Source: Patescibacteria group bacterium
Lineage (GTDB): Bacteria > Patescibacteriota > WWE3 > UBA101185 > UBA10185
Reading direction: 5' to 3'
Assembly: GCA_041658075.1 (NCBI GenBank)
Contig: JBBAAW010000001.1
Span: forward strand, 24,778 to 88,777
DNA: 64,000 nt
Below the pieces are notes generated by a model. It was not told the origin of the DNA. It saw only the letters and a list, made by a program, of their open reading frames with translations, and searched no databases. The position numbers and the translations under genes were made by a program. Position 1 is the stretch's first letter, and every line of letters begins with the position of its first letter. Positions 27 through 29,432 of this stretch are shown here, one piece after another.

Positions 27-563
27 GTGCTTTTTATGGGCAACATTCAACCTCATCAGGGTATTGACTTGATGATCGACTCATTTGCGGAGGCGAGAAA
101 GGCCTATCCAAATTTGACATTGGAGATAGTTGGGAGGGGTCCTTATACAGAATCCGCACAACAAAAAGTGTCCGATGCCGGTCTGTCATCTTGTGTGATA
201 TTTCATGGTTTTGTGGACGATGAAAACAAGGTGGACGAAATTTATAAAAGATCTTTAGTTGGCATGGCACTATATCACCCAGAACTCTCAAGTTTCACAA
301 AGCTTTCTGACCCTGGAAAGATTAAGGACTACCTTTCTGCTGGTCTTCCTGTAATTACAACAAATGTTTTCCCTTTCTCCAAGGAGCTGGCGGAAAGCGG
401 CGCCGGGATTGTAGTCTCTTACGAAAAGGGTTCGGTTGTAGATGCCTTGAAGAGGATTCTTAATCCAAATAATGCAGAGGTTTTCAGAGGGGCTGCTTTA
501 AAACTTGCAAATAAATATCTTTGGGACCTAGTTCTTGATAGAACATTAGAACAGACTAATTAG
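27..563 (+). CDS. Glycosyltransferase family 1 (GT4), C-terminal part; probably 5'-truncated by the window edge
   Basis: C-terminal GT1 signature (E..GKIKDYLSAGLPVITT). The ORF runs from the window start. Confidence 0.55.
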   Translation: MLFMGNIQPHQGIDLMIDSFAEARKAYPNLTLEIVGRGPYTESAQQKVSDAGLSSCVIFHGFVDDENKVDEIYKRSLVGMALYHPELSSFTKLSDPGKIKDYLSAGLPVITTNVFPFSKELAESGAGIVVSYEKGSVVDALKRILNPNNAEVFRGAALKLANKYLWDLVLDRTLEQTN

Positions 564-1798
564 ATCTTGTTTTGTATGTTTTCAAATACTTTGCGAAAGT
601 TTTCTCGATAGTCATACTTTTCTGCTGCATCTGTGACCCCCTTGAGTAGATTATTATACCTGTTGTTATCACTTAGAACATCTACTAATGTTTTAGCTAT
701 ATCAACTGAATCAAAATTAGCAAGAACTCCGGCACCAAGATCCCGGAGCTCGTCTCCAAGGGACGGTCCGCCGTTAGTCATAATAACAGGTAGGCCGGCC
801 CGTAAATACTCTTTGGGTTTAGACACATCGGCATACATGGAAACATTCTCCTTCTCTGGTTTATATAGAGCCAGCCCGATTTTGGCTTGTCTAATAATTT
901 TTATGGCATCCTCAGTTTTTTCAACGAACCCTTTAAAGTCCACATTACTTTCTATGTTTAACTGCTTAGCCATTTCCTGGTATTTTTTGACCGCTGTTTC
1001 ACTTCCGCCCACAAAAGTAATTTTGACATTGGGCATTGCTTTTACCATAAGTGCTAAGGCTTCTAAAGCCACGTCTACCCCGGCGTTTGCGTCCAGTCGT
1101 CCTATATAGGCCAAGGAGTTTTCATTTCTTACAGTTTTCAAATTTTCAAGCGACTCATTTTTGTCTATAGTAACCGCCGGAGCGACAAAATATGATTTTG
1201 CTGTCAGTCCATTTTCTAAATCCCACTCCCGTGTTTTTTGATTGGCATACCAAACTACATCATTTTTTATGCCAACCTTTCTAAGTAATAGTTGGATAAG
1301 CACAAAGATTTTATCCACGAGTTTTATTATTGCGTTATCAGAATTAAGGTAGTACGGCTTGATTTTACGATCAAAGATGGGCAGTACATCACCGCTCATA
1401 AATACAGTTTTATGTACTCGACCTAGAATCTTATAGATCCACATTACAAAAGACCCAAAGCTAGTCTCTCCGATGCCTAAATCAAAAACCCCTCTATTTC
1501 TAGTGAGCTTGCAGGCGGCGTATGTGTTAAGAATATACTGCAGCATAAACGCCATGTAGGAAGGGATCTTAAGTGAAGACCTAAATTTTAATGTAGTCTT
1601 TTGCCCCACTTCATCTAGGACAAACGCCTCATATTCAATCCCGCTTTTAGATAGCGACACAGAGGGGAGCTTTATAACGGTGAGTTTATAATCAGTGTTT
1701 TCGGCAAGATACTTTGATAGAAAATTTAGTGGCGGTGTTCCATAGAAATTGACTACATACAATATTCTTATGTTTGTATTTAGATTACTTTTTTGCAT
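560..1798 (-). CDS. Glycosyltransferase family 1 (GT4)
   Basis: 412-aa ORF with C-terminal GT1 motifs (EYLRAGLPVIMTNGGPSLGDEL). Overlaps its neighbours by 4 and 14 nt. Confidence 0.75.
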   Translation of the reverse strand: MQKSNLNTNIRILYVVNFYGTPPLNFLSKYLAENTDYKLTVIKLPSVSLSKSGIEYEAFVLDEVGQKTTLKFRSSLKIPSYMAFMLQYILNTYAACKLTRNRGVFDLGIGETSFGSFVMWIYKILGRVHKTVFMSGDVLPIFDRKIKPYYLNSDNAIIKLVDKIFVLIQLLLRKVGIKNDVVWYANQKTREWDLENGLTAKSYFVAPAVTIDKNESLENLKTVRNENSLAYIGRLDANAGVDVALEALALMVKAMPNVKITFVGGSETAVKKYQEMAKQLNIESNVDFKGFVEKTEDAIKIIRQAKIGLALYKPEKENVSMYADVSKPKEYLRAGLPVIMTNGGPSLGDELRDLGAGVLANFDSVDIAKTLVDVLSDNNRYNNLLKGVTDAAEKYDYRENFRKVFENIQNKI

Positions 1799-2396
1799 CC
1801 ATCACCATGTAAATTTCTGCCGCTCCACCTACTAAATAACACCAGAATCTTTCAAACAATTCGGGCGACAAATTAATTAGAAAGTTCACCCCCAAGATTA
1901 TTGGTTTTAGTATTAATCCTGCCAGTGGAGGCCAGTCGGGGGCAACAATATACTTCATGTACCATTCCTCATTAGGCCAGGTATAGAAATACCTGATTTT
2001 ACGTGTGACAATGTTGAATCGCGCCCCAGAATAGCCCCATTTTTTGTAATCCCGTTTGGCGTCGAAAATATCAAAGCAGTATATTGAATAAGCTCTTTTA
2101 TGTGTAATGTCGCCCCAGGCATATAAGCTGCTAAAATGCGGAACTCTAAGATATAATCGACCCTTAGGTTTAAGTATTCTGTAAACTTCTTCAATAACTC
2201 TTACTGGATCATCCAAGTGTTCTAATACATGGTACATGTGGATTTCGTCAGCATAATTGTCCGTAAAAGGATATGGTGTTTGGTTCAAATCATGAACTAT
2301 GTCCACGGTATCTTTTTTTATTATATCTACACCTATTGAGCCTGGGATTCTTGAATTATTACAACCTAGATTTAATATTACCTTGCTCATGTTCAC
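1785..2396 (-). CDS. Class I SAM-dependent methyltransferase (Methyltransf_11-like)
   Basis: ILNLGCNN...VDI motif I region and YHVLEHLDDP motif typical of type-11 methyltransferases. Confidence 0.6.
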   Translation of the reverse strand: MNMSKVILNLGCNNSRIPGSIGVDIIKKDTVDIVHDLNQTPYPFTDNYADEIHMYHVLEHLDDPVRVIEEVYRILKPKGRLYLRVPHFSSLYAWGDITHKRAYSIYCFDIFDAKRDYKKWGYSGARFNIVTRKIRYFYTWPNEEWYMKYIVAPDWPPLAGLILKPIILGVNFLINLSPELFERFWCYLVGGAAEIYMVMDAKK

Positions 2397-2400
2397 GATT

Positions 2401-3516
2401 CTATATCAAGCTAACCGACCTGTACAGGTTATTAAGTAATCTACTTTTATCGTTTTCCTTTGCCCAATTAAGCGCTTTATCTCTCATGTCAGAATAAAGG
2501 TTGGTGTCCGACATTAATCTTTCCAGACCTTCCGCAAGCTCTTTGACATTTTCGCAAAGTATTAACAAGCCTCTCTCGTAAGCCTCAACAGCTGTTGATA
2601 TATTTCTGTTGCACACAACGGGCAAACCCGATGCAGCGTATTCTCGAATTTTTAAAGAGTCGGCGTATTTTTCAAATGATTTTACGTTTTCGTACCAGGC
2701 TACACCGATATAAGATTTTGACATTATTTTTATGTTAGTTTGATAGTCAACAAGACCGTGTAATATTACTATATTTTCTAAATTACGCCGGCTTGCTTTT
2801 CCAATAACATTTAATTTTATTGACGGAAACTTTTCCTTTAACAACGACGTTAAATCCAGCAACATGTCGATTTCGGTGTCACTAATGTTAGATTTTGTAT
2901 AAACTAACTCGTAACGATCTTTCTCTTTTGGGTCTATACGCGCGGCATGTTCATAATCAGGGGAGTTTGGCAAGAATACTGCTCTATCCGGATTTTTAAC
3001 GCGTGGCTGTACAATTTCCCGCATGTTTTTGCTTACATATGTTACAAAAGATGCGTGAGCAATGGAGAAATAGTAAATTTTTCTATAGAAAGCATCAAGC
3101 AATTTTATTTCAAATCGACATTCTGAAAAATCTACGGCATGAAACTGCACAGGCGTTTTTCTCAGGAGACTAACGACATAAGCTGACACAAAGTTGAGTG
3201 GATCTACGGCAATAATTAGGTCAATTTTCCCATACGAGAGAGTTTTAAAAATATTAAACACTATTTCGATTGGCCACCTGATTACGCCGGAAAATGGGAT
3301 TTTGTACTCCCGGATTTGTTCTCCGTTTTTTATTCTTGAGCTGTGTACTCCGGCAAGCGGATGCTCAATAAATATTACTTCAAATCCTGTATTCTCGAGA
3401 AAGGAGGTAACATAGTCTATTCCTCCTGGTTTGATTCCCGTTGCCGTGAATATTCTGTGTACAAGGATAACTACTTTTTTTCTTGTTGTTGGTGTTGTCA
3501 TAATGTCTTGTTCCAA
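2401..3516 (-). CDS. Glycosyltransferase family 1 (GT4)
   Basis: C-terminal GT1 domain (KIREYAASGLPVVCNRN). Confidence 0.7.
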   Translation of the reverse strand: MEQDIMTTPTTRKKVVILVHRIFTATGIKPGGIDYVTSFLENTGFEVIFIEHPLAGVHSSRIKNGEQIREYKIPFSGVIRWPIEIVFNIFKTLSYGKIDLIIAVDPLNFVSAYVVSLLRKTPVQFHAVDFSECRFEIKLLDAFYRKIYYFSIAHASFVTYVSKNMREIVQPRVKNPDRAVFLPNSPDYEHAARIDPKEKDRYELVYTKSNISDTEIDMLLDLTSLLKEKFPSIKLNVIGKASRRNLENIVILHGLVDYQTNIKIMSKSYIGVAWYENVKSFEKYADSLKIREYAASGLPVVCNRNISTAVEAYERGLLILCENVKELAEGLERLMSDTNLYSDMRDKALNWAKENDKSRLLNNLYRSVSLI

Positions 3517-5270
3517 ACTTCGAGCAGGAACATTCTCCAGAGTAAATATTCCTTTTGCATTTTTATGGGTCCAAAACAGTTAAAATCTAATGAACTTTCA
3601 AGAGTTTTCCTTCCTACGATACCAGATGTTAATGAGTCCGCACCCAATATATAAGATCTTACTTTGTCGATATTGTTAGTTAATACATCAAACATTGGTA
3701 GCATAAATCCCCGCTTTTTTCTTGTGGTTACATCAGACGGAAGGTATTTTTCGGCTACTTTTCTCAATATGTATTTTTCATTTGAACCATTCATACTGAA
3801 TGTCTCACCTTTTATCTTGTATTTATTTGGAAGACTAAATGCGTACTCCACGATTCGATGGTCCAAATAGGGAACTCTAGCCTCAACGGATGCGGACATT
3901 GTTGCCTTGTCTACCTTCATAAGAAGGTGGTTTGGGAGCTGTATATTTACCTCAACCGAAGAGATGGTTCTAAAAACATCATCTTGCTTGTTTTGCTTGA
4001 AAATTGAATTCCAGTAGGATATGTACCTTGGTGTTTTAAAGGAGATATTTCTTGATATTGCATAGTAGTAGGCAGTCGCTTTTAAAGGTGTGGGTAGAAT
4101 AGAAAAAGGAAGCTTTGAAAGCCCAAACCACGAATAACCTCCAAATATTTCATCCGACCCCTCACCCAAAAGAATAACCGTGATGCCTTGCCGCTTTAAT
4201 TCTTTACAAAGTATCGCTGTAGATATCACCCCCCCGTCAAAAGTACCCATGTCATCAAATATCGGGGCGTAACTCTCAATATTATTGATTATGTTTTTAG
4301 TGTCAATAAACACTTCGTGGTGATCTGTTCCTAAATACTCAGCAACTTTTGCCGCATTCTGACTTTCATTGAATTTATGATCGAACCTCGCGGTATATGT
4401 TTTTATCTTATTACTCGTTGAGTTCTGGGCATACGCAGCTATTAATGACGAATCCAGTCCTCCAGACAACAGTATTCCCACAGGCACATCGGAGACCATG
4501 TGCTCCATAACAGATGTCTTTAGCAAGTCATCCAGTTTTTCCACTGCTTCTTCGAACGTATCTTTACTGTTTTCATTTATTCGAGGTAAGGACCAATACC
4601 TTCTATTAGTTATCTGTTTGGACTTTGCCTCCCATTTTAAATAACAACCGGGTTCCACCTTTTTGATATTTTTAAACAAAGTGTTTATTCGATCCGGTAG
4701 AAACATGAACCCGAGTAATAGTTCAACTTTGTCGCGATCAACATTTTCTTTCAGACTATAGTCAGGTACCGCTTTAAAAGCTTTTACTTCACTTGAAAAG
4801 AAAAGGCAACCCTCTTTATTTAAGTAATAGAGGGGTTTTATTCCAATTCTGTCCCTAACTAAAAACGCCGTCTCTTTTTTATAGTCGTATAAAGCAATGG
4901 CGAACATCCCCCTAAGTTTTTCAAAAACCCCCTCGCCCCATTCTCTATAACCATGCAGAATTACTTCCGTATCGGACTCGGATTTAAATTGATAGCCTTT
5001 TCCCGCCAGCTCTTTTTTAAGATCTTTAAAGTTATATATTTCCCCGTTTTGACAAACCGCAACCGATTTATCCATGTTTTGCATGGGCATTCTACCTTTT
5101 TCAGAAAGATCAATAATACTTAATCTTTTAGACCCCAAGGAGATTTTTCTATCAAAGTCTTCCAGAATACCCTGGTCGTCCGGTCCTCTATGGTGAATCA
5201 AGTCCAGCATATTTTGAGTAACGCCACGATACTTTTGATTCACATTTATTATTCCGGCAATTCCACACAT
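3498..5270 (-). CDS. asnB: Asparagine synthase (glutamine-hydrolysing)-family amidotransferase, likely amidating a sugar carboxylate
   Basis: N-terminal MCGIAGI (Cys2 nucleophile), SGGLDSS PP-loop, 590 aa. Lies inside a glycan locus. Confidence 0.85.
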   Translation of the reverse strand: MCGIAGIINVNQKYRGVTQNMLDLIHHRGPDDQGILEDFDRKISLGSKRLSIIDLSEKGRMPMQNMDKSVAVCQNGEIYNFKDLKKELAGKGYQFKSESDTEVILHGYREWGEGVFEKLRGMFAIALYDYKKETAFLVRDRIGIKPLYYLNKEGCLFFSSEVKAFKAVPDYSLKENVDRDKVELLLGFMFLPDRINTLFKNIKKVEPGCYLKWEAKSKQITNRRYWSLPRINENSKDTFEEAVEKLDDLLKTSVMEHMVSDVPVGILLSGGLDSSLIAAYAQNSTSNKIKTYTARFDHKFNESQNAAKVAEYLGTDHHEVFIDTKNIINNIESYAPIFDDMGTFDGGVISTAILCKELKRQGITVILLGEGSDEIFGGYSWFGLSKLPFSILPTPLKATAYYYAISRNISFKTPRYISYWNSIFKQNKQDDVFRTISSVEVNIQLPNHLLMKVDKATMSASVEARVPYLDHRIVEYAFSLPNKYKIKGETFSMNGSNEKYILRKVAEKYLPSDVTTRKKRGFMLPMFDVLTNNIDKVRSYILGADSLTSGIVGRKTLESSLDFNCFGPIKMQKEYLLWRMFLLEVWNKTL

Positions 5271-5271
5271 G

Positions 5272-6219
5272 TTATTTACTTGCCTCCACCTTTACCATTG
5301 GCCAGAACATGGGCAAGTTTTCTGCCATCCACGTAACAACATTTCTGACTATTGGATTCTTTATATATTCAAATACTAACCTTGTTTTAAAGTGGCTTAC
5401 AACGACTTTTCTAAAGCCCGCCTGTTTATGTAACCTTATTAAGTTCGACGAAGTGAAGGAAAGTTCATACCCAAACTTCATATGTCGCGATTTTAGCACT
5501 TTGATGTGAATGAATTCCGCTAGCTGTTTTAGCATCGGTACGTTTGGAATATTGCCCCACATTTGCCTATAAGTAAGCGATCCTAGATTTAGATAGGGAA
5601 CTGTATTAAAGGTTTTTCCATTGTCTTTTAGCACTCTATACATTTCGGAAACGGCCTTTGAAGTGTCCTTAAAGTGTTCTAGTACGCCACCGCCATAAAT
5701 TAGATCAACACACGAGCTGCTTAGGGGCATATACTTAATGTCGCCATGAATTAAAAGGTAGTTATCTATCCCTTCTTGATCCAGCAGTTTTTGGGCCAAC
5801 ATTAATGCTTCAAGCGAAAAATCCACCCCAATGACAAGCTTGACCTCCCGAGCTATTTGACTGGCAAAAAACATTGGTCCGCAACCGATTTCTAAGAAAA
5901 CCTTATTTTTGTTTAGGGTTTCATTTTCTGTTAACTGCGGATAGACATAGGAAAAATCCTCAGTGACGTACGCTTGAAGGCGCTCCTTTATATAGTGACT
6001 CTCTAGGTTTGAATAATATTGGTTCCATTTAGCTATTGAGAGGTCCAGATCCTTTTCTGCAGAGTTTAAAAAGCTATAAATTTTACCAATTTTTATATAC
6101 TTCTTTTCAATATTGCACTTGGCACATCTTAGGAATTCTTTTCCCTCGTCAAAAAGTTGACTATGACAGTATGGGCAGGCTATTAAAGTGTTCTTCACTG
6201 AAGTAGGCTTCTGTTCCAT
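5272..6219 (-). CDS. SAM-dependent methyltransferase with N-terminal zinc-ribbon (CxxC...CxxC)
   Basis: CPYCHS...CAKCN zinc ribbon. LEIGCGPMFFASQIAREV motif I, VIGVDFS motif II. Confidence 0.65.
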   Translation of the reverse strand: MEQKPTSVKNTLIACPYCHSQLFDEGKEFLRCAKCNIEKKYIKIGKIYSFLNSAEKDLDLSIAKWNQYYSNLESHYIKERLQAYVTEDFSYVYPQLTENETLNKNKVFLEIGCGPMFFASQIAREVKLVIGVDFSLEALMLAQKLLDQEGIDNYLLIHGDIKYMPLSSSCVDLIYGGGVLEHFKDTSKAVSEMYRVLKDNGKTFNTVPYLNLGSLTYRQMWGNIPNVPMLKQLAEFIHIKVLKSRHMKFGYELSFTSSNLIRLHKQAGFRKVVVSHFKTRLVFEYIKNPIVRNVVTWMAENLPMFWPMVKVEASK

Positions 6220-7265
6220 TCTATGGTTCTTTTTAAACCTTCTTTTAACGACACTTTGGGACTATACTTTAGCAGTTTCTCGGCCTTTTCAATGTTGGGG
6301 TGAACCCTGGAAGGTGCGTCCACAACGTGGCTTTTATCTGAGTTTTCCTTTACACTCACACCCTCCTTTATTCCGCACAGCTCGTGAATTATTTCTGCTA
6401 GATGTTTTATAGTAACTTCCTCTTTATTATTGGCCACATTAACCGGATCCGCATTAAGGTTTGAAAACAGCAAACGGAAAAATAAAACCGTGGCATCTGA
6501 GACATAACAATAGCACCTTGTATCCAGTCCCTTGTTGAGCATTTGAATGGGTTTCTTTTCGAGTCCGGACTTCATAAATTCGGCCATGACTCTTCTATCT
6601 CCCACCTTTAGCCCAGGACCGTATACAATAAATGGTCTGGCAATCTTAATGGGGACACCGAATTTTTTAAAGTAGATATTACATAATGTTTCGCTTAATC
6701 TTTTAGATTCGGCGTAGCAGGCACGAGGCGCTAAGGGGGAAACGTTTCCGTTATATGTTTCTGGTGTTGGAATATTTTCTGGTGTTGGATTTCCGTAAAT
6801 TTCACCGGAACTCATGTAAAGGATACTTGAAACCTTATGCTCTTTAGAGTATTCCAGAATCCATCTAATACCCTTAACATTAACATCCAGGGTTCCAAGA
6901 GGGTCGCTCTCAAAAAAAGCTGGTGCAGATCTACCGGCGGCATGAACTATATAATCAACTTTCCTCTTTGTTTCGTAAGGATTTATAGAATCGTGCTTCA
7001 CAAACATTACATCTTTTCTTCCCAATAGATAACCCAATCTCCCGTTTTTATCCATTCCTGACCTTTGCAAACCTATGACTTTAGCAGGCTCTTTTTTTGG
7101 ATTTTTGTCGTTAAAATATAAGATGGTTTCAACCAGGTAGCTGGCGAGTAATCCCTCCGGACCTGTAATCAGAAAGGTCTTACCAAGAATCTTTTCTTTT
7201 TCACTTTTTAACTCGTTGTAAATTTCTTCTAAATCTTTGCGAATTATTTCTGACGCTTTTTGCAT
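6195..7265 (-). CDS. NAD-dependent epimerase/dehydratase (extended SDR) acting on a nucleotide sugar
   Basis: Rossmann fold LITGPEGLLASYL. Catalytic Y..ESK-like motif (YAESKRLSE). Confidence 0.75.
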   Translation of the reverse strand: MQKASEIIRKDLEEIYNELKSEKEKILGKTFLITGPEGLLASYLVETILYFNDKNPKKEPAKVIGLQRSGMDKNGRLGYLLGRKDVMFVKHDSINPYETKRKVDYIVHAAGRSAPAFFESDPLGTLDVNVKGIRWILEYSKEHKVSSILYMSSGEIYGNPTPENIPTPETYNGNVSPLAPRACYAESKRLSETLCNIYFKKFGVPIKIARPFIVYGPGLKVGDRRVMAEFMKSGLEKKPIQMLNKGLDTRCYCYVSDATVLFFRLLFSNLNADPVNVANNKEEVTIKHLAEIIHELCGIKEGVSVKENSDKSHVVDAPSRVHPNIEKAEKLLKYSPKVSLKEGLKRTIEWNRSLLQ

Positions 7266-8179
7266 TTTTGTAGTACCTTTCTGTAAATTGATTCTCCGTC
7301 CAGTCCAAGGTATTGATACAGCTCCTGCTTGTGACCGTAAATGTCAAGGTACTTATCGTCTATACCAATACGAGTAAGCATGGGCTTTGTACCGGCTGGT
7401 AATTCGGCAACCAATTCGGCTATCACAGACCCCAGCCCGCCAATTACGCTATGTTCTTCAACGGTGAATAGATATTTTGCCTTACTGATGATGTTTATAA
7501 TCTCCTTATTCAGAGGCTTTATAGTGTTTATACCCACTACTGTGGGATCTATTCCTTTCTTTGTTAATCTCTCTTCGGCCAATAAGCTTTCTTTTACTGT
7601 CTCTCCAAAGGAGATAATTACCACTTGACTGTTTCCCCTGCGAGCGATTCTATAATCTGCGAATTTGTTATTGTTTGTTTGGTTTTCGGTTTGTTCTGGC
7701 AAGTTCAGCGTCAGCCTAATATAAGTTGGTCCGTCTATTCGAGCGGCTTCTCTAAGTGTCTTTTCGGTTCCCTCTGCATTTTCCGGGGTAAATATTCGCA
7801 TTCCGGGAATTGTTCTCATGATGGCAATATCCTCAATTGAATGGTGGGTGGCACCCAGGGAACTGTAGGAGACTCCGCTTCCTATTCCTACAATTTTTAC
7901 ATTTGCGCTATGGCAGCCAACCCCCACGCGTATTTGGTCAAAGACTCTGGATGTAATAAACGGCGTTATAGTATATGCAAATGGTTTCCACCCATCAAGA
8001 GCCATTCCTGCCGCCGCGCTGATCATTGCAGCCTCGGAAATTCCCACATTAAAAAATCTGTCCGGGTATTTATCCTTAATCTTTCTAAGAAGAAAGGCAC
8101 CGATATCACCCAGGAACAATACCACTTTGGGATCTTCATCAAACAACTTCTCTATTGTTTTAACAAAGGTTTTTCTCAT
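7244..8179 (-). CDS. Transketolase, C-terminal (pyrimidine-binding + C-terminal) subunit of a split transketolase
   Basis: FNVGISEAAMISAAAGMALDGWKPFAYTITPF signature. The ORF track start at 8305 is a TTG extension; the internal ATG at 8179 gives a 20-nt overlap with the upstream subunit gene. Confidence 0.8.
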   Translation of the reverse strand: MRKTFVKTIEKLFDEDPKVVLFLGDIGAFLLRKIKDKYPDRFFNVGISEAAMISAAAGMALDGWKPFAYTITPFITSRVFDQIRVGVGCHSANVKIVGIGSGVSYSSLGATHHSIEDIAIMRTIPGMRIFTPENAEGTEKTLREAARIDGPTYIRLTLNLPEQTENQTNNNKFADYRIARRGNSQVVIISFGETVKESLLAEERLTKKGIDPTVVGINTIKPLNKEIINIISKAKYLFTVEEHSVIGGLGSVIAELVAELPAGTKPMLTRIGIDDKYLDIYGHKQELYQYLGLDGESIYRKVLQKCKKRQK

Positions 8180-9029
8180 AGTGTTTTTCTTGTAGGTCAA
8201 GCTCTTCCATTGCTTTAAGATATTCTTCTTCCGTTGGAATTCCGGTATGCCATTTGTTATCGTTTTCCATAAACGGTATACCTTTTCCTTTAACTGTGTG
8301 GGCAATCAAAGCTGTAGGTTTACCTTTGATTAACGGACATTTAATTAGTGCGCCATAAATTTTGTTAATATCATGTCCTTCCACATCTAGAGTTTCCCAA
8401 CCAAAAGCCGACCATTTTAACTTTAGGTCATGTGGATCTTGCACGGCAACAGCACTCCCACTTGATTGCATTTCGTTATTGTCCAATATAACTACCAGAT
8501 TATCCAACTTTTGGTGAGAGGCTATAGCTGCCGCTTCCCATGTTGACCCCTCGTTGCATTCTCCATCTCCAACCACGCAAAATATCTTGCGGTGCGACTT
8601 TTCTAATTTTGCCGCCATGGCAAACCCCACACCCATGGGAAATCCATGTCCTAAAGAACCGGTGGATACTTCAACGCCTGGAATTTTATTATGGTCAGGG
8701 TGGCCGCCAAGGATTCCATTTCTTGTGCAAAACTTTTCAAGCTCATCCATAGGGAAAAATCTCCGTCTCGCCAACACAGAATACAAAGATACACAGCCGT
8801 GCCCTTTACTAAGAATAAATCTATCCCTTTCTTTATTTGATAAATCCCGCTTATCTATCTTGAGAATTTTTGAATAAAGTACTACCAGCATTTCTACTAT
8901 AGACATAGCCGCCCCAATATGTCCGTCTTTAGATCCGTAGATCATTCTTATTACATCTCGTCTTACTTGAATGGCCAGCTTCTTGAGCTTTGTTATTTCC
9001 GCTTTATTCATGTTCATATTCTGTTTCAT
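8160..9029 (-). CDS. Transketolase, N-terminal (ThDP-binding) subunit of a split transketolase
   Basis: GHIGAAMSIVEML...SKGHG...GSLGHGFPMGVGFA thiamine-diphosphate binding motifs. Confidence 0.85.
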   Translation of the reverse strand: MKQNMNMNKAEITKLKKLAIQVRRDVIRMIYGSKDGHIGAAMSIVEMLVVLYSKILKIDKRDLSNKERDRFILSKGHGCVSLYSVLARRRFFPMDELEKFCTRNGILGGHPDHNKIPGVEVSTGSLGHGFPMGVGFAMAAKLEKSHRKIFCVVGDGECNEGSTWEAAAIASHQKLDNLVVILDNNEMQSSGSAVAVQDPHDLKLKWSAFGWETLDVEGHDINKIYGALIKCPLIKGKPTALIAHTVKGKGIPFMENDNKWHTGIPTEEEYLKAMEELDLQEKHYEKNLC

Positions 9030-10195
9030 TTTTTTAACAAGCTACAAAGCAACTCAAGCTCGCCTTTTGTTAGTTCAGGGTTATTAGCAATGTAAAAGCC
9101 ATTTTCGTGAACTAATTCGCTTACGGGTGTTTCGTATGTTTTTGAAATGTATTTTTTAAAGAAGGGCTGTCTTGTTATATTTCCCGCGATAACAGGTCTA
9201 ATTTCAATGTCGTGCTTTATGAACCTATCGCGGTATTTTCTATACAAAACTTTAGTCTTAAAAATTAAGGGATAGGTAAAGTTAGAAACCAGCGACATAT
9301 AAGGTACATTGTAATGATATAAGTGATTGTTGCTATTGGCTGTCTTTTCGTATAGTTTATAGTTACTTTCTCTTTTGCCAACAACCTCATCCCAATAATT
9401 TATCTGTACATTTCCAATAAAACCCTGGATATCTGTAGGTCTAACATTATAGGCTAGGTCGTAAAAAGTATATTTGGACACAAACGGATCAATTTTGTGT
9501 TTTTTTATTAGATCGGTGCGCGCTTTCTCGGGAATGTTTCTGTCCCACCCATGGGCCCTCACCATACAAAGCATGTGGTAAAATTCCTCATCATCCGTAC
9601 ACACCATGCCCCCTTCAATTGTGGACAAGTGGTGTCCAACATAGGTTGAGAAAGTTGAAGCAAACCCAAAGTTTCCTAATAATGTACTGCCGATTTTTGA
9701 ACCTAGTGCTTCGCAATTGTCCTCTATAAGAATTATTTTGTTTTCCTTACAGAACGACGCTATTTTATTTAGTTCTCCGCCAAACCCCAAAACATTAGTA
9801 ACAAAAAGAGCCTTAAACTTATCTTTACTATAGGAGGCTTTGATGGTCTTAACGGAAATGTTTAAACTCTCAAGTTCGCAGTCAACGGGGATAGGTTCAA
9901 GACCCAGCTGTATGAGGGGCATTACATTTGTAGCCCATGTTATTGTTGAAAACCCAACTTTATCCCCCTTTGATATTTTACCCGTATTTAACAATGCTTG
10001 AATGAGTGCTAAATTTGCGGCACTTCCGTTAGAGACAAACAACGCGTATTTTCTACCTTGTTTTTCTGCAAACAGCCTTTCAAACTTTCTACACTCATCG
10101 TACATACTTAATATATCGGCCTTTTTGATAAACTCGGCCAGTTTTTTCTTTGTTTCTTTCTCTTTGTAAAATGTTGAACGAATTAGCTTTAGCAT
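9026..10195 (-). CDS. DegT/DnrJ/EryC1/StrS-family PLP-dependent nucleotide-sugar aminotransferase
   Basis: 389 aa, fold-type I aminotransferase pattern. Sits in an operon with gmd. Confidence 0.75.
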   Translation of the reverse strand: MLKLIRSTFYKEKETKKKLAEFIKKADILSMYDECRKFERLFAEKQGRKYALFVSNGSAANLALIQALLNTGKISKGDKVGFSTITWATNVMPLIQLGLEPIPVDCELESLNISVKTIKASYSKDKFKALFVTNVLGFGGELNKIASFCKENKIILIEDNCEALGSKIGSTLLGNFGFASTFSTYVGHHLSTIEGGMVCTDDEEFYHMLCMVRAHGWDRNIPEKARTDLIKKHKIDPFVSKYTFYDLAYNVRPTDIQGFIGNVQINYWDEVVGKRESNYKLYEKTANSNNHLYHYNVPYMSLVSNFTYPLIFKTKVLYRKYRDRFIKHDIEIRPVIAGNITRQPFFKKYISKTYETPVSELVHENGFYIANNPELTKGELELLCSLLKK

Positions 10196-10198
10196 AAG

Positions 10199-11254
10199 TT
10201 AGTAGTTGAGGTATCCGTTGTTTAACCCTTCGTTTTTGATATCAAACTCGACCATTTCTTTGACCAGTTCTTTAAAGTTGTGTCTAGGTTTCCAACCAAG
10301 GATTTTTCTGGCCTTTGAAGGGTCACCAAGCAAAAATTCAACTTCGGAAGGTCTAAAGTATTGTGGGTCGATTTTAACATATGTCTTCTTTGTTTTTGTA
10401 TCATAACCTATTTCTTTTAGCCCCTTGCCGGTCCATTTTATTTTGATTCCAATATGTTCAAACGCCAGCTCCACAAACTCCTTTACGGTGTGGGTTTCTC
10501 CTGTGGCTACAATAAAGTCATCCGGTTCTTTGTGTTGCATCATTAGATACATCGCTTCCACATAATCCTTTGCGTGTCCCCAATCTCGAGACGTATGGAT
10601 GTTACCCAGATACAATATCTTTTGTTTTTTATGGAAAATGTCAGCTACAGCTCTGGTGATTTTTCTAGTCACAAAAGTTCTACCTCTCCTTGGCGACTCG
10701 TGGTTAAAAAGTATTCCATTGCAAGCAAAAGTCCCGTAACTATCGCGGTAGTTTTTAACCGTCCAATAAGAAAAAACCTTTGATATGGCATAGGGAGATT
10801 GGGGGTTAAAGGGGGTAGTTTCCTTTTGAGGAGTTTCAAGAACTTTTCCAAACATTTCGCTTGAGGAAGCTTGATAAAATTTGGTTTGTGGACTTGTGTG
10901 CCTAACGGCCTGTAACAACCTTAGCGTTCCCAGAGCATCTACATCGCAGGTGTATTCGGGAATATTAAAGCTTACGCCAACGTGACTCTGTGCTCCTAGA
11001 TTGTATATCTCGGTTGGTTTGAGTCGGGCGACAAGTTCTATAAGACTGGATGAATCTGAAAGATCGCCGTAATGAAGCTGCACATCCCCTGAAGAGAAGT
11101 TCTTCTCAATTATATGGTCTATTCTGGATGAATTAAAAAGGCTGGTTCTTCTACGCAAACCATGGACCTGATACCCTTTTTGTAAGAGTAGCTCCGCCAG
11201 GTATGATCCGTCCTGTCCAGTTATTCCTGTAATAAAAGCTCGTTTTTGTGTCAT
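10199..11254 (-). CDS. gmd: GDP-mannose 4,6-dehydratase
   Basis: N-terminus [33 protein letters not shown] is the canonical GMD signature. 351 aa. Confidence 0.9.
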
Positions 11255-12292: not shown

Positions 12293-12335
12293 GCACGCAT
12301 TTTAGTATGAAATATAGCGGAAAACAAGAACAAAG

Positions 12336-13150: not shown

Positions 13151-13209
13151 AATAAAGGAAAAGTCTAATTTTCTCAATTTGTATGCACATTATTACAACC
13201 CTATAGTAT

Positions 13210-13238
13210 TTGACGATATAGACTTTTTGGCGTAAAAT
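13210..13238 (+). promoter_or_regulatory. Sigma70-type promoter TTGACG-17nt-TAAAAT, followed by SD AGAGGTG, driving the GC-rich ORF
   Basis: Near-consensus -35 and -10 with a 17-nt spacer, read directly from the sequence. SD lies 5 nt before the ATG at 13289. Confidence 0.5.
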
Positions 13239-13288
13239 AGCCGTATCTAGCAATCCAGCTAGTCTTGAAAACAAAATAGAGGTGAAAA

Positions 13289-14032
13289 ATGGACGCGTAT
13301 CTGCGTGCACTTGAGCAACAGTTGGAGCCGCTGTACCACATTCCCCATGTCGTTGGGGGGCACGAGATCAGTCATGTGAGGATGATGTTGGCGCGAGCTA
13401 AAGGGGTGCTTGAGGCGATCAGCCGATACTACCCCGGCCTCGACCCGGCAGACGATGGAACTTTCACAGAGCTTCTTGCCGCTATTTGGTGGCACAACGT
13501 CGACCGGGTTCGGGAGTGGAAAGTAGATGTACAGAAAGCGGGGGGTGACGAGCCTTATGTGCTGATGCAGCTCGCTGACAGTCCTTTCGAAAACGACGCG
13601 CGTGCGCGCATCGCGTACGCGGTGGCAAACCACTCTCAGAGGGAGTGTCAAATCGGTGAACATCCCTGGTTGCTGGTTGCCTTGATGGACCTGGACAAGA
13701 TGGTCAGGCTATTCCCGCTCAATGTCATCGAAGGGGCACAACACCAGCTCGAGGATAACCCGATATACGATCCGGAACCGGAACACCTCTTCGACTACAA
13801 GAAGGCACGCCGAAGCTTATGGCGCGCATTCATGTGGAACTTGGAGTGGGTGCCCATGCTTTCTTGTGACGAGGTGCGTGCGTTGATTGAGAAAGCACAC
13901 TTCCGTGCGTTCATCGACTTCCTGCGGGCTCTGGGGGCTGACATCGCGGAGCGTGAGGGAGTGCCGAACGGAGTCGAAGGGCAGATTGAACTAGCTCTGG
14001 GTGAATATTACCAGGAGTTTGCCTGCTCGTGA
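13289..14032 (+). CDS. Hypothetical protein encoded in a GC-rich (~58%) island
   Basis: 247-aa ORF with strong promoter and SD. Compositionally foreign. No family recognised (His-rich N-terminus HVVGGHEISH). Confidence 0.5.
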   Translation: MDAYLRALEQQLEPLYHIPHVVGGHEISHVRMMLARAKGVLEAISRYYPGLDPADDGTFTELLAAIWWHNVDRVREWKVDVQKAGGDEPYVLMQLADSPFENDARARIAYAVANHSQRECQIGEHPWLLVALMDLDKMVRLFPLNVIEGAQHQLEDNPIYDPEPEHLFDYKKARRSLWRAFMWNLEWVPMLSCDEVRALIEKAHFRAFIDFLRALGADIAEREGVPNGVEGQIELALGEYYQEFACS

Positions 14033-14145
14033 ACTTGCCTAACCGGTGGCAAGGGGGGCTACCTACAACAAAAGCATAATCTTTGTTGCAAGGGGCCTCC
14101 AATTCTTTTCATTGGATTGACAGAAGCAGGCATTAAAGCCAAAAT

Positions 14146-17100
14146 GTGAGGATAAAATCGCCTGATAGCAAGAACATGACAAAGGTGCCCGGTAAAATTC
14201 TCATCTTTTTTCAAGCCTACAAAAGTTTCTTATCCAGACATCCCGTTGTTTCATTAATACTAAATATCCTCTGGCCGCTTCTTATCTTTCTGTGGGTTGT
14301 TTTTATCAACCGTTTTCCACAGGGCTACATTTATGTTAGTGGAGATTTTGCTCAGCCAATAAACATAGAAAACATTTTCAAAAACCTTTTTTACACTTGG
14401 GGTAATGGTATATCAGCTCCCAGCGAGGGAGGATTCTTCTCCTGGTTTGCGGCTTCTCCGTATTATTTTATCTTCTATCTTCTGCCCCACAAACTGGGTC
14501 TTAACGACACTAATATTTTGTCGTACGTACTTTTTCTTTTCTTATCACTTTCCTACTTTTCCTTCTTGTTGGCCTTAAAACTTATCTTCAAAGAAAAACT
14601 TACTGTTTTTACCAGAGTTTTTTCGCTTATCTATTCAATAAACCTCACAACTATATATTTCTACACTTACACGTGGGGTTTTTCACACCAAGTTTTTTTA
14701 TATATAACCCTTCCTTTATTGGGTGCGGTATTCTACCGTTACATTTCTAAACCTTCCCTTAATAATACGTTAGCCTTTCTTGTCTTGCTCTTTTTGTCTA
14801 TCCCCGGTTTTACTAATGTAGCGTTTTTCGTTTCTTTATGTCTATTTTTTTGTCTATTTTTGGCTTTTTCTATTCTGTTAAAAGTCGTTGTTATAAATAG
14901 GAAACTTGTTTTATCATTATTAATTCTTTCGATACTTTCTCTGCTGACTCTATCAGTTTGGGTTGCGCCTACTTACATGGCTTTACGGGGCGAATTATCG
15001 AGTTTGGCCGGTGGAATGTTTAACTTTAATCTATGGCTCAGAACCCAGTCGGCGGATATCTTGTCCATCCTGATAGGTTTACCAGGTTATGGAGGGTTCT
15101 TTCCGTTTTCTCACAACCGTTGGTTTCTTTATCTGTTTCCGTTTATTCCAATACTTCTACTTGTAGTGTTTTTAATAAAGTCAAAGAATGAACCCGCCGT
15201 TTTGCGTAAAAGACTGTCTTTAGTCTTGCTTTCAATCTGTGTTATTTTTATGTTTCTAATAAAAAAAGGGCAAGGTCCATTTGGCGAACTCACTTTAAAG
15301 GTTTTTTCCGTTATTCCTCTTTTATCTATATTTAGAAGCTACGAAAAAATCGCTCTTTTTATGCCTTTTTTGATGCTTACTGCCATTTACGGTCTCATAC
15401 CCTTAAAATTTACCGCTAACAAATATATCTACGTTGTTTTAGTGGCGACTTTGTTTGCAGGAGCTCCATTTTTAATGGGTGGCATTCAAACTAAATACAG
15501 CATAACTTTGGGCGACGATCCTACAAAGGACTACACAACTTCAAAGTATTCTGGTTTAGTTAAAATTCCTTCCGACTACTATAAAATCGCCGATATTGTG
15601 AATGCAGATACTCAGGATTCAAAGGTTCAGGATCTGCCATTCAGTGTGTTGAACACACCTGCGTGGGTAAATTACATAAAATGGAAATTAATTGGATTTA
15701 ACGTTACACAGAATCTTTTGGTAAAGCCCACCATTGGACAAAATGCCTCACAGCTAAACTTATTTAACTGGTCGCCCACTGCAGAATTTAATGGGACTCG
15801 TTTAAATCCAGAGTGGTATATAAAACTGCTTTCATACTTTAACGTTTCCCACCTTATTTACCATAAAGGTGTGGCCGATCAGTTTATCTCTCAGTCACTG
15901 CCTAAAGTTCAGGAATTAGAAAAGGAGGGTTTAATATCTAATCTATATGATGGAGAGTCTGCCTCTCTTTACAAGGTGGACGATAAATATGTTCTGCCTA
16001 GTTTTTACGTTCCCAAAGAAACATTGTTTGTGTATGACGAATTAAGATTTTTTCCGTACCTACTCCTTGTTCCGGATTACGACAAACAAACAAACTACCT
16101 TTTTAAAGAGGTTAACAAACCGACTTTGGATGAACAAAATACGAAGACAGTTGTAATATTGGAGGAACTCATCTCTTTGGATACTCTTATGGATAACACA
16201 TGGAGTCCAGCGTGGGTATGGCCCCCACAGAATGACTCCAAGGATCAAGTTGACATTCAATTGCTAAATATTGTACGGGTGGCGTTTGAGATGAAGTCGC
16301 AAAACCTATACCATAACCAACCACTGCAGGGAGAAATAGCCTTCGCACTGCAAGGATTAAAGTTGGCCGTGGAAGAAGAACTAAAGACGCGTACCCAGGT
16401 TACAGAACGTAATAAAATTATCGAAAAAGTTCTTAAGAATCTTATAATGGTTAATGTTGAGTATGGCGACCAGGGAGATGTCCACAACTTTTTTCTTTCT
16501 CTTCTGTATAATTTTGACTCTTGGGCGTTAGTAAAAGGCTGCATGTTCAGCTGCTACCCTATGGAAATTCCGGAGACCGGGGATTACGAAATCCTTGTTG
16601 AAAACTTAGACGATGCCGCCAAAAACGCAAGAATCTATTTTAAAGATAGAAACACGGGCGCTACTTTGTCCGGAGAAGCTACTCAAAACCTAAGTAAATC
16701 GAATAACGACTATGTAAATTACGGAGTTATATCCTTTACTAAGGGTAACTCTTTGTTTTTAGATTTTTACCATCGGTCGCAGATATTTCTCAAGATGTCG
16801 GAGTGGAAAAAGGAGACTGTGGACGGAAAAAACAGTATAAGCAGAGAGCTGTTAAATTTAGAACCAAATCGGAGATATCAGGTTTCCATTAAATACAATG
16901 GAGATTTAGATTCAGTTTCTTTTACGATTGTTGAGGATAGCTCTGTTCCAAATGCATCGGTACTACAGTTGGGAGAGATCTTAAAAAAGACGGGGCAGGA
17001 CCCATTCTTCTTTGCAGGAAATGTCGGTGGAACAAGCAAGCTTTATCTTTACAACAAGGACGGAAAGGATATTAACTCTTTAGATATTGGCGATATAAGG

Positions 17101-17523
17101 GTGGAGGAGATCTTTAGTCCCAAAATAATTCTGAAACAAACTAAAACATCAATCGGCACATCTCCGGAGAGTCCGGAAATACAAATAAAAAAGGTTAATC
17201 CAACCAAATACCTTATTTTAGTTAGCAAAGCAACCGGTCCGTATTCTCTGGTATTTAGTGAAAGTTTTCATAGTCAATGGAAGCTGTATCTTAAGGGAAA
17301 AGAGATAGCTAAGGATAATCATTTTGTGGCAAACGGCTACGCTAACTACTGGGTAATCAACCCCCAAGATACGGAGAATCTAAGTTCGTATGATCTTGTA
17401 GTGGAATACAGACCCCAAATTCTATTTTATTATGGCGCAATAATTTCCCTTTCGACTTTGTTTCTTCTCTTTTTAGTACTATGTCTAAGAAAAATTATCC
17501 AAAAAGGAAAAACTTATGAGTAA
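14146..17523 (+). CDS. Giant integral membrane protein (1125 aa), GT-C/AftD-like architecture: ~11 N-terminal TM helices, a large extracytoplasmic domain, a C-terminal TM anchor
   Basis: Hydrophobic N-terminal 450 aa, soluble middle part, C-terminal TM (IISLSTLFLLFLVLCL). The only long plus-strand gene inside the minus-strand cluster. Confidence 0.5.
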   Translation: MRIKSPDSKNMTKVPGKILIFFQAYKSFLSRHPVVSLILNILWPLLIFLWVVFINRFPQGYIYVSGDFAQPINIENIFKNLFYTWGNGISAPSEGGFFSWFAASPYYFIFYLLPHKLGLNDTNILSYVLFLFLSLSYFSFLLALKLIFKEKLTVFTRVFSLIYSINLTTIYFYTYTWGFSHQVFLYITLPLLGAVFYRYISKPSLNNTLAFLVLLFLSIPGFTNVAFFVSLCLFFCLFLAFSILLKVVVINRKLVLSLLILSILSLLTLSVWVAPTYMALRGELSSLAGGMFNFNLWLRTQSADILSILIGLPGYGGFFPFSHNRWFLYLFPFIPILLLVVFLIKSKNEPAVLRKRLSLVLLSICVIFMFLIKKGQGPFGELTLKVFSVIPLLSIFRSYEKIALFMPFLMLTAIYGLIPLKFTANKYIYVVLVATLFAGAPFLMGGIQTKYSITLGDDPTKDYTTSKYSGLVKIPSDYYKIADIVNADTQDSKVQDLPFSVLNTPAWVNYIKWKLIGFNVTQNLLVKPTIGQNASQLNLFNWSPTAEFNGTRLNPEWYIKLLSYFNVSHLIYHKGVADQFISQSLPKVQELEKEGLISNLYDGESASLYKVDDKYVLPSFYVPKETLFVYDELRFFPYLLLVPDYDKQTNYLFKEVNKPTLDEQNTKTVVILEELISLDTLMDNTWSPAWVWPPQNDSKDQVDIQLLNIVRVAFEMKSQNLYHNQPLQGEIAFALQGLKLAVEEELKTRTQVTERNKIIEKVLKNLIMVNVEYGDQGDVHNFFLSLLYNFDSWALVKGCMFSCYPMEIPETGDYEILVENLDDAAKNARIYFKDRNTGATLSGEATQNLSKSNNDYVNYGVISFTKGNSLFLDFYHRSQIFLKMSEWKKETVDGKNSISRELLNLEPNRRYQVSIKYNGDLDSVSFTIVEDSSVPNASVLQLGEILKKTGQDPFFFAGNVGGTSKLYLYNKDGKDINSLDIGDIRVEEIFSPKIILKQTKTSIGTSPESPEIQIKKVNPTKYLILVSKATGPYSLVFSESFHSQWKLYLKGKEIAKDNHFVANGYANYWVINPQDTENLSSYDLVVEYRPQILFYYGAIISLSTLFLLFLVLCLRKIIQKGKTYE

Positions 17524-17896
17524 AAAGCATCACAAAGATCAGCCGTTAGTGGAGAGTTACACGGACTCTGTATTGGAGAGCGGGATGTTCTGGTTATTTG
17601 CGTCAATTACCTTTGTGGTATTTCTTGAAATGCTTTTCTTTCCCAAAGTTCCTGATCTTTTAGAGCTACTGCTAATATTGCTGTGGCGATTTTCTGTGGA
17701 GAAAAATAAACATCCTCAAAAGATATTAACAGTCTCGGTTTGCGTAATAACACTATTTATCCCCTTCCTTTTAATGATTGGTCGATCCGATCTGGCAAAG
17801 GAATTTGCTATTTGGATGTTTTATATTTTCATTGGCGAGGTTGGTTTGGAGGCATGGAAAATAATAAAACAGGGTTGGAGACCCGATGTCAAATAA
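17516..17896 (+). CDS. Small membrane protein (3 predicted TM helices), translationally coupled to the giant gene
   Basis: ATGAGTAA start/stop overlap. Hydrophobic segments. Confidence 0.4.
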   Translation: MSKKHHKDQPLVESYTDSVLESGMFWLFASITFVVFLEMLFFPKVPDLLELLLILLWRFSVEKNKHPQKILTVSVCVITLFIPFLLMIGRSDLAKEFAIWMFYIFIGEVGLEAWKIIKQGWRPDVK

Positions 17897-17990: not shown

Positions 17991-19097
17991 TCACTGCTTC
18001 CATCCTTTCCTGCTGGCTTCTGCCTTTTTAAACAGTCCGGCGATGGTTCCTAACGCATACATCCATAAAGTAATCTCGCATGCTAGTGGATGAAAAAACC
18101 AAGCAGGATCCCGTTTTTTAGTGTAGCCTTTTACAGCCTCATACAATAAGGGAAAAACCGTTAAACAACTTAGTAAGAACTTTATCATTCCGAACTTATT
18201 CATTACTGCAGATACAAACAAAGAAATTACCCCCTGCACCTTCTCTGTAATTACAGCTTTTCCCGTTCCTAACTCATCTTTAGCCTCCCATTCAAAATCC
18301 CGATTTTTAGCAACAAATTTAGAATATAAAAGATCACTAATTCGTCTTCGTTGTTTCCTGGCAAATTTTTTGATATCACTTTCACAAAAAGTATGGATAA
18401 TTCCATTTTTTACTTTAATAAAAGTTACGGCGCCGTTTTTCTTTAGGGATTTTGCAACGATGTCTATATCAAACAAGTAGTCTCCTTTTGCGGCTTCCTT
18501 TAAAAAACCGGTTCTGAAAACAGTTCCGTTCGCACCGATCGTTGGTAGACCCCTTTTGTCAAATTTCACCACAAGGTACCCCCCTTTATCAACTTCTTCA
18601 TGCGGAACTTCAGTCCACCTTCCTGTAAGTAGGTTCATTCGGTCATAATCTCCCAAAAAGTGTACAAAGGGATCGTTCATTCCTATCAAGGCGCAATATC
18701 TGGCAATAAAACCATCCTGGGCGCGCCAGGTGTATTCCCAAGGCTCGCTTCCAACGGCTTCAGGTTCCTTTATTAAGGGATCTATCATATCCCTCATCCA
18801 ATTTGTATCAGGCAAAATGTTATCCGAATCTATTAAGACAACAAAATCCCCGGTAGCGGCCCGTAAGGCAGCCATTTTCCCCGCTTCCCCCGTTTTTAGT
18901 TTATTTTCCACGACTTTAGCCCCGTATTTAAATGCAATATCTAAGGTTTTGTCTTTTGAGCCCCCGTCGGCAACGATAATCTCTATTTTCTCTTTTGGAT
19001 AATTTTGAATGGAGATAGATTTAAGGCACAATTCAAGAACCGATGCGGCGTTTAGTGTAGGAATTAAAACAGAAACTTTAGGTTTAGAATCGCTCAT
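17991..19097 (-). CDS. Glycosyltransferase family 2 with C-terminal TM helices
   Basis: VSVLIPTLNAA...DGGSKDKT...DSDN GT-A motifs. Confidence 0.75.
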   Translation of the reverse strand: MSDSKPKVSVLIPTLNAASVLELCLKSISIQNYPKEKIEIIVADGGSKDKTLDIAFKYGAKVVENKLKTGEAGKMAALRAATGDFVVLIDSDNILPDTNWMRDMIDPLIKEPEAVGSEPWEYTWRAQDGFIARYCALIGMNDPFVHFLGDYDRMNLLTGRWTEVPHEEVDKGGYLVVKFDKRGLPTIGANGTVFRTGFLKEAAKGDYLFDIDIVAKSLKKNGAVTFIKVKNGIIHTFCESDIKKFARKQRRRISDLLYSKFVAKNRDFEWEAKDELGTGKAVITEKVQGVISLFVSAVMNKFGMIKFLLSCLTVFPLLYEAVKGYTKKRDPAWFFHPLACEITLWMYALGTIAGLFKKAEASRKGWKQ

Positions 19098-20679: not shown

Positions 20680-20764
20680 GAAATCGATTATAGCAGATTT
20701 GAAATAGGGGTTTGGTACCACTCCGCAGACGCGACAAATTATTTTGTCCGCGGAGTGGCCCGTT

Positions 20765-28168: not shown

Positions 28169-28171
28169 AGT

Positions 28172-29359: not shown

Positions 29360-29432
29360 TAGAAAAATTATGATGATGGACTTAACCGCAACGGGTGGGA
29401 TTGCCGTGACGATGTCTTTCGGAATGACAATT

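Follow-up and report, generated by a model that had tools for sequence, protein, structure and literature searches.

An AftD-like giant membrane protein with a predicted GT-C fold and its four-helix partner in a Patescibacteria glycan cluster

A giant membrane protein gene with a coupled small partner

The 64,000-nucleotide stretch analysed here (the window) comes from a Patescibacteria group bacterium (assembly GCA_041658075.1, contig JBBAAW010000001.1, positions 24,778 to 88,777), and carries on its plus strand a gene for a giant membrane protein (the large protein), followed by an open reading frame (ORF) for a 126-aa membrane protein (the partner). The large protein is AftD-like in predicted fold and in layout and lies outside the AftD family proper; its most likely role is to build or decorate a sugar polymer at the cell surface. 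A first-pass annotation of the window had proposed both genes, and both ORFs are present. The features of the pair, with transmembrane (TM) segments as predicted, are as follows.

14146..17523, plus strand: gene for the large GT-C-fold membrane protein; maximal ORF of 1125 aa, GTG start at 14146
14146..15477, plus strand: N-terminal TM GT-C core, aa 1-444; ~11 TM and juxtamembrane helices (model, hydropathy, positive-inside rule, Pfam match of family member P0095)
14344..14346, plus strand: D67 codon, motif GYIYVSGDFAQP, in the first external loop; candidate catalytic acid
15334..15348, plus strand: R397-S-Y-E-K401 codons, in the external loop that precedes the final TM hairpin; candidate donor lipid-phosphate site
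15478..16215, plus strand: extracytoplasmic alpha/beta domain, aa 445-690 (secondary structure of the model; part of the 676 residues aligned to AftD)
16228..16536, plus strand: four-helix insert, aa 695-797 (model helices 701-794); variable module
16543..17145, plus strand: region resembling the beta-sandwich of carbohydrate-binding modules (CBMs), aa 800-1000; candidate acceptor-glycan site
17158..17409, plus strand: terminal beta-sandwich, aa 1005-1088; motifs NPTKY, LVFSESFHxxWK and NGYANxW
17410..17523, plus strand: C-terminal TM helix (model helix 1089-1123), short basic cytoplasmic tail and stop
17516..17896, plus strand: partner ORF, 126 aa; four TM helices with both termini inside; translationally coupled to the large gene

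With 1125 codons in DNA of ~38% GC, and with thousands of homologues, the large ORF is far longer than expected by chance. Public gene calls on the same contig start it at ATG 14176, giving 1115 aa. A single TTGACA-17-CAAAAT site ends at 14145 and would favour ATG 14176 as the start; the number of sites in the promoter and terminator scan was not above the shuffled expectation. The large gene and the partner ORF share an 8-base overlap, ATGAGTAA, at 17516-17523, as first reported, and a Shine-Dalgarno-like AAGGA motif at 17504-17508 lies 7 nt 5' of the partner start.

Fold and topology of the large protein

An AlphaFold model of the large protein, built on an alignment of relatives from the homology search, was of good quality (mean pLDDT 79.4, pTM 0.77). 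A Foldseek search with this model returned AftD as the top structural match by a clear margin (E = 2.5e-14), with 676 residues structurally aligned, and oligosaccharyltransferases (OSTs) as the second-best fold relatives, with at most 449. The multi-TM N-terminal core was superimposable on solved GT-C enzymes. The first-pass annotation had described the architecture as reminiscent of AftD and had named a missing GT-C fold match as one result that would speak against it; the match was found, and the resemblance extends to the fold.

The model has twelve long N-terminal helices. Eleven of them, all before residue 445, are counted as membrane-spanning by a parity argument, in agreement with the approximate number first given, and the remaining one, at residues 100-116, was assigned to the first external loop as juxtamembrane. 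A positive-inside count gave 14 Lys and Arg residues in 62 aa for the cytoplasmic loops versus 10 in 151 aa for the short external loops, which places the large domain outside the cell. The model and the count support a predicted topology with a cytoplasmic N-terminus and with the active-site loops and residues 445-1088 on the extracytoplasmic side. The soluble region, described at first pass as an extracytoplasmic domain of more than 600 aa, comprises 644 aa (445-1088), and the positive-inside analysis puts it outside and not in the cytoplasm. The proposed C-terminal anchor corresponds to a single TM helix (1089-1115), and exactly one TM segment follows the NGYANxW motif in 113 of 115 family proteins.

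The large protein itself had no match in Pfam (E ≤ 0.1), in NCBIfam or, by phmmer, among PDB sequences. Family profiles of 19, 51 and 12 sequences gave no GT-C match among PDB sequences, and only marginal CBM and coiled-coil noise was returned. A sequence bridge between the family and AftD is provided by family member P0095, which matches both: it aligns with the family profile over its full length (E = 5.9e-118), and its residues 46-583 align collinearly with positions 28-541 of the 661 in the Pfam GT-C_AftD profile (E = 1.5e-5; 23.6 bits, cutoff 26). Sub-threshold matches to GT-C_AftD were obtained for 5 of 40 diverse family members.

Comparison with AftD and other GT-C enzymes

AftD, a mycobacterial cell-wall alpha-(1->3)-arabinofuranosyltransferase of the Rv0236c type (PF11847, GT-C_AftD/DUF3367; PDB 6W98 and 6WBX), is the closest characterised relative of the large protein. 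The two share a GT-C core of ~11 TM helices, a soluble GT-C domain, external beta-sandwich or CBM modules, and re-entry into the membrane through a single TM helix, so that the C-terminal TM helix of the large protein is the positional counterpart of AftD TM12. Both also carry an acidic residue just past TM1, and a late external loop in which basic residues are conserved.

Several differences set the large protein apart. Its identity to AftD is ~10%, and it falls below the 26-bit gathering threshold of PF11847, as does P0095, the best-scoring family member. In AftD, TM12 is followed by an acyl carrier protein (ACP)-binding four-helix bundle, TM13-16, whereas the large protein has the single C-terminal TM helix and a separate gene for a 4-TM partner. 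AftD has three CBMs, whereas the large protein appears to have one CBM-like module and a helical insert. AftD homologues have been reported only across 12 orders of Actinobacteria (AftD paper), whereas the present family comes from Patescibacteria and other uncultured lineages, and the host is no actinobacterium. No UbiA-type or DprE-type genes, expected for a decaprenylphosphoryl arabinose (DPA) pathway, were present among the Pfam-scanned genes of the 64-kb window.

Other GT-C families were also compared. An identity as an OST was rejected, as none of 160 family proteins, the window protein among them, has the WWDxG motif. The large protein had no Pfam STT3 match, and its aligned length with STT3/PglB/AglB (GT66) was far shorter than with AftD. 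It differs from the PMT/ArnT-type GT-C enzymes (PMT_2, GT39/GT83) in its far larger external region and its C-terminal TM anchor, and the YfhO, PMT_2, ArnT and PMT Pfam models gave no match at E ≤ 1 among 40 diverse members; the window protein had no PMT or PMT_2 match.

Conserved residues

Residue conservation was counted in 51 diverse family members. The D67 column contains 48 Asp and 3 Glu, and W85 is invariant (51/51). D67 lies within the motif GYxxxxGDxxQ, 12 residues past TM1. Its near-invariance and its place just past TM1, where GT-C enzymes including AftD (D41) carry an acidic residue, make it a candidate catalytic acid, and by analogy it may be the equivalent of AftD D41. In the late external loop, the R397 column contains 49 Arg and 2 Lys, and K401 is Lys in 47 members. 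By analogy with conserved basic positions in GT-C enzymes (K361 in AftD, for example), R397 and K401 are candidates for binding the lipid-phosphate of the donor.

The essential residues of AftD are K39, D41, E251, K361 and D474 (AftD paper). Their candidate counterparts in the large protein are D67, R397/K401 and D477. The residue two before D67 is Ser, Gly or Ala, where AftD has Lys (K39 relative to D41).

Judged from the model, the alpha/beta domain (aa 445-690) corresponds to the soluble GT-C domain, and P475, Y478, P498 and G517 are conserved within it. The four-helix insert is not present in the short-form members described below, and some members match DUF5667 at this position. The first-pass annotation had asked whether the soluble domain holds CBMs, and the AlphaFold model shows a CBM-like beta-sandwich at ~800-1000. 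CBM-like matches were found for the family, and some members contain CBM_4_9 domains, which together point to a polymeric glycan as the acceptor. In the terminal module, W1045, N1067 and W1069 are invariant (51/51), and E1039 and H1059 are near-invariant.

Codon 575 (15868-15870) departs from the family pattern. The residue is Asp in 46 of the 51 members, within the motif YHKDV (HKD), and is Gly in the window protein; of its close relatives, P0003 also has Gly and P0006 has Ala. The loss of a near-invariant Asp would fit a large protein that acts as an inactive glycan-binding scaffold, a pseudo-enzyme that organises the other GT-C enzymes of the surrounding cluster, of which there are five (four PMT_2, one DUF2079). 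We regard such a role as highly improbable, as D67, W85, R397, K401 and all other invariant positions are kept, and as Gly or Ala at column 575 is common to a small clade of well-conserved full-length proteins, which suggests tolerance and not decay.

Size and spread of the family

A word-indexed homology search returned 19 relatives of the large protein, all named 'hypothetical protein', and the one with an organism name belonged to candidate division WWE3. When 1.84 billion cluster representatives were searched exhaustively with HMMER, 7,669 matched at E ≤ 1e-3 and 1,870 at E ≤ 1e-30. This large family of 7,669 cluster representatives carries no database annotation.

Two architectures were observed. 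Long forms of ~1,100-1,290 aa match the entire profile, and short forms of ~730-890 aa match positions 1 to ~625 and a second stretch; the sequences of the short forms show that the terminal module is kept. Reference genomes with family members belong to WWE3, Saccharibacteria and Paceibacterota. Members also occur in metagenome-assembled genomes labelled Omnitrophota, Nitrospirota, Pseudomonadales and Bathyarchaeota, labels for which binning errors are possible. Where records name an organism, it is most often one of the Patescibacteria. Among the papers searched, none connects Patescibacteria with DUF3367 or with GT-C enzymes.

In the WWE3 and Saccharibacteria loci, the gene pair is closely followed by a gene for another giant membrane protein (~995-999 aa), immediately downstream in L001 (13882-16869) and with two genes (535 and 399 aa) between in L005 (12588-15498). 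It has no Pfam match and is a distant paralogue of the large protein (hidden Markov model E values of 2e-37 and 7e-32). The window has no counterpart of this paralogue.

The four-helix partner

The model of the partner has four helices (pLDDT 70). The partner gene comes straight after the large gene in the window, L001/L002/L009 (all from one WWE3 genome), L003, L004, L005/L010 and L006, and usually overlaps it by 8-23 nt. In L008, it is one gene away, with a bAvd-like gene inserted between. The partner is present in 6 of 6 distinct long-form loci, versus 1 of the 6 short-form loci that have sequence on both sides.

A profile search returned 135 partner homologues. The 120 listed are 83-224 aa long, mainly ~104-130 and ~210-224 aa, and the few that are named come from the Patescibacteria group, Shapirobacteria and the Parcubacteria group. 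The family has a conserved core, LTGLW...YKFEGRxS...LCPFLLIFKKExIAEKAAIWAYMFLVVGV, and P83, L86, A94, A98 and W100 are invariant. For 8 members, no Pfam match was obtained even at an E value of 10, and no PDB sequence match was found.

About half of the listed homologues (P0218, P0242, P0193 and others) are 210-224 aa long, and carry an extra N-terminal hydrophobic region of ~100 aa, with two or three more helices before the conserved core. Genes of the 23S_rRNA_IVP/bAvd type, an accessory protein of diversity-generating retroelements, were observed in or near the clusters at L008 9766-10122 (the gene between the large gene and the partner) and L004 16505-16879.

We infer that the large protein and the partner probably form a complex. 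AftD provides a precedent: it functions as a 1:1 complex with a second membrane protein, formed within the membrane.

The partner might further be the split-gene counterpart of the TM13-16 bundle of AftD. The 11 TM helices and the C-terminal TM helix of the large protein, together with the four of the partner, sum to the 16 of AftD; the stop/start overlap sits where AftD has the 18-residue TM12-TM13 loop; and the predicted N-in, C-in topology of the partner is the one expected for TM13-16. We nevertheless consider this origin quite doubtful. No fused form was found among the 120 listed of the 135 homologues (83-224 aa), which leaves a gene fission unsupported, and no extra C-terminal TM helices were found in the members of the large-protein family that were checked. 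If true, the widespread two-gene module would be the unfused form of an AftD-type machine, and the partner would be a regulatory subunit gating the active-site loops, as proposed for the AftD bundle.

Gene neighbourhood and synteny

The large gene and its homologues always lie within glycan clusters in the loci examined. The neighbouring features in the window are as follows.

560..11254, minus strand: sugar-tailoring and GT-B cassette, in the order Gmd, DegT aminotransferase, split transketolase, epimerase, methyltransferase, AsnB-like amidotransferase, GT4, methyltransferase, GT1 (Pfam)
13289..14032, plus strand: upstream 247-aa ORF; called as a gene in the public record, no family
17991..19097, minus strand: convergent GT2, 368 aa, with a hydrophobic C-terminal region (Pfam GT2)

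The minus-strand flanks form a glycan-biosynthesis cluster of ~45 kb, which ends near 45.7 kb and is followed by housekeeping genes. It encodes GT1, GT2 and GT4 enzymes, a GDP-mannose dehydratase, a DegT aminotransferase, a split transketolase, an AsnB-like amidotransferase, methyltransferases and a B12-radical-SAM enzyme. A gene for a CAP/SCP-domain protein of the cysteine-rich secretory protein family (44797-45699, minus strand) closes the cluster, beside the housekeeping genes.

The cluster also encodes five more GT-C-type proteins at 26462-30992, 33263-35401 and 36091-37620 (four PMT_2, one DUF2079), several small GT2 enzymes, two Wzx flippases and an LPG_synthase_TM protein. For an organism with a small genome, this is an unusually heavy investment in extracytoplasmic glycosylation.

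The first-pass annotation had presented the gene pair as a plus-strand unit running against the cluster. Locally, this orientation stands. The plus-strand island contains three genes and not two, since it includes the 247-aa ORF, and the orientation has no general significance. The cassette at 560..11254 also adjoins the large-gene homologues in L001/L002, L003, L005 and L006. In WWE3, Saccharibacteria and L006, the pair lies directly downstream of the cassette (epimerase, methyltransferase, AsnB-like enzyme, GT1/GT4, methyltransferase, GT1) and is co-directional with it, and in WWE3 the last GT1 gene of the cassette and the start of the large gene overlap. The window and L003, its closest relative, have the pair at the other end of the cassette, in divergent orientation. 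The opposite orientation here is thus a local rearrangement.

The 247-aa ORF had no Pfam, NCBIfam or PHROGs match and is not present in L003. It belongs to a block of ~3 kb between Gmd and the large gene (11348-14032), which also contains a GT2-like 314-aa gene and a methyltransferase. The block has a GC content of 0.47, versus ~0.38-0.41 on both flanks, is missing in L003, and may be an insertion.

Three kinds of thiamine-diphosphate enzyme were observed at a single cassette position: the split transketolase in the window (7244-9029, minus strand) and L003, an acetolactate-synthase-like enzyme (TPP_enzyme_N/M/C) in WWE3 (L001 1312-3120), and an E1_dh plus Transket_pyr enzyme in L006 (1584-3607). 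The swap looks like a non-orthologous replacement, and the presence of these enzymes suggests that a keto-sugar nucleotide receives a two-carbon branch or extension.

Sugar pathways beside other homologues of the large protein differ. In L007 (1318-6001), the homologue is next to a GDP-heptose-type set (SIS isomerase, GHMP kinase, nucleotidyltransferase, HAD phosphatase), and in L008 a UDP-galactopyranose mutase (974-2065) is encoded beside the homologue, implying galactofuranose. These differences indicate that the family is not tied to one sugar.

The convergent GT2 downstream of the partner could possibly supply a lipid-linked sugar. An assignment as a dedicated polyprenyl-phosphate sugar synthase was rejected, as it gave only generic GT2 matches among PDB sequences and its adjacency is not kept in other loci. 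The end of its gene is overlapped by a gene for a B12-binding radical-SAM enzyme (19084-20847, minus strand), which may methylate or otherwise radically modify the glycan or its precursor.

The adjacency of GT-C, small 4-TM and GT2 genes in the window raises the possibility that the partner is a GtrA/SMR-type flippase delivering the donor, and that the three form a classic three-component system (GT2, flippase, GT-C) of extracytoplasmic glycosylation. The partner resembles GtrA, ArnE and ArnF in its size (126 aa against ~120 aa), its four TM helices with N-in and C-in topology, and the position of its gene next to a GT-C enzyme, and a GT2-GtrA fusion encoded at another site of the cluster is evidence that systems of this type are in use in the organism. 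We regard this role as unlikely. The partner has its own motif (LCPFLLIFKKExIAEKAAIW) and no detectable sequence or profile similarity to these flippases. A GtrA/SMR identity was rejected, at the level of sequence and profile, after hhalign comparison with the GT2-GtrA protein of the window (probability 0.06%) and the lack of a Pfam PF04138 match, and, as noted, the adjacency of the GT2 is not kept in other loci and its similarity is generic.

Proposed function

The fold, the first-loop acid, the late-loop basic pair, the CBM-like modules and the glycan-cluster context together point to a transferase that acts at the outer face of the membrane, depends on a lipid-linked sugar and, like AftD, has a polymeric glycan as its acceptor. 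The first-pass annotation had named a polymerase or branching enzyme for the glycan as the candidate role; its structural reading is supported, and the role itself is a putative one. We therefore favour, with somewhat better than even confidence, an elongating or branching enzyme with a GT-C fold that uses a polyprenyl-phosphate sugar. The candidate GT2 lipid-sugar synthases and the Wzx flippases of the cluster give contextual support for the use of such a donor.

As we picture it, the N-terminus of the large protein would be cytoplasmic and its ~11 TM helices would form the catalytic core, with D67 and R397/K401 in external loops facing the 644-aa extracytoplasmic region. The neighbouring GT-B enzymes would assemble a lipid-linked glycan precursor from the tailored GDP-sugar, and the Wzx proteins of the cluster would flip it. 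At the outer face of the membrane, the large protein would take a sugar from a polyprenyl-phosphate-linked donor and add it to the growing surface glycan, held by the beta-sandwich module or modules. It would be made together with the four-helix partner through the overlapping stop and start.

Several observations weigh against this reading. The large protein has no significant sequence match to any GT-C family, and K39, D41, E251, K361 and D474 of AftD were not mappable residue by residue, as family profiles searched against PDB sequences gave no AftD match. The Gly at column 575 in place of Asp could mean altered or reduced activity. The sugar pathways vary by locus, with a GDP-6-deoxy sugar in the window, heptose in L007 and UDP-galactopyranose mutase in L008. 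The function of every member of the family is a prediction from sequence and models. Finally, the loci have no consistently neighbouring polyprenyl-phosphate sugar synthase, so that a monosaccharide donor is not specifically favoured over an oligosaccharide donor.

In an alternative reading, the large protein transfers glycan en bloc, either as a Wzy-like polymerase or as an OST-like ligase with a protein, lipid or wall acceptor, using a polyprenyl-diphosphate oligosaccharide flipped by Wzx. OSTs are the second-best fold relatives, although the WWDxG motif is missing throughout the family and AftD, which uses a monosaccharide-phosphate donor, is clearly the closest structure (676 aligned residues versus at most 449 for OSTs). 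The conserved neighbours are nucleotide-sugar tailoring and cytoplasmic GT-B enzymes, including the GT1 whose gene overlaps the large gene in WWE3, and the variation in sugar pathways is easier to reconcile with a generic polymerase or ligase than with a transferase dedicated to one sugar. The cluster in the window has two Wzx flippases and no recognisable Wzy; however, Wzy-type polymerases are often too divergent for Pfam, which makes the missing match a weak argument, and one relative locus has Wzy_C proteins alongside the large gene. On balance, we consider en-bloc transfer possible but rather improbable, and retain the elongating or branching transferase as the preferred reading.

Significance

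AftD-type enzymes are indispensable to the arabinogalactan and lipoarabinomannan wall of Actinobacteria, the only group from which, to our knowledge, they have been described, and they are regarded as drug targets. GT-C enzymes as such occur widely, and the present family extends a known kind of enzyme without overturning a concept.

With the proposed assignment, a testable function can be put forward for thousands of giant membrane proteins now labelled 'hypothetical', and the conserved four-helix partner offers a handle on a poorly understood accessory membrane domain of AftD. We know of very little work on the surface chemistry of ultra-small, host-dependent bacteria, whose surface probably mediates attachment to the host. 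The family and its clusters imply that elaborate extracytoplasmic glycan assembly takes place in these organisms.

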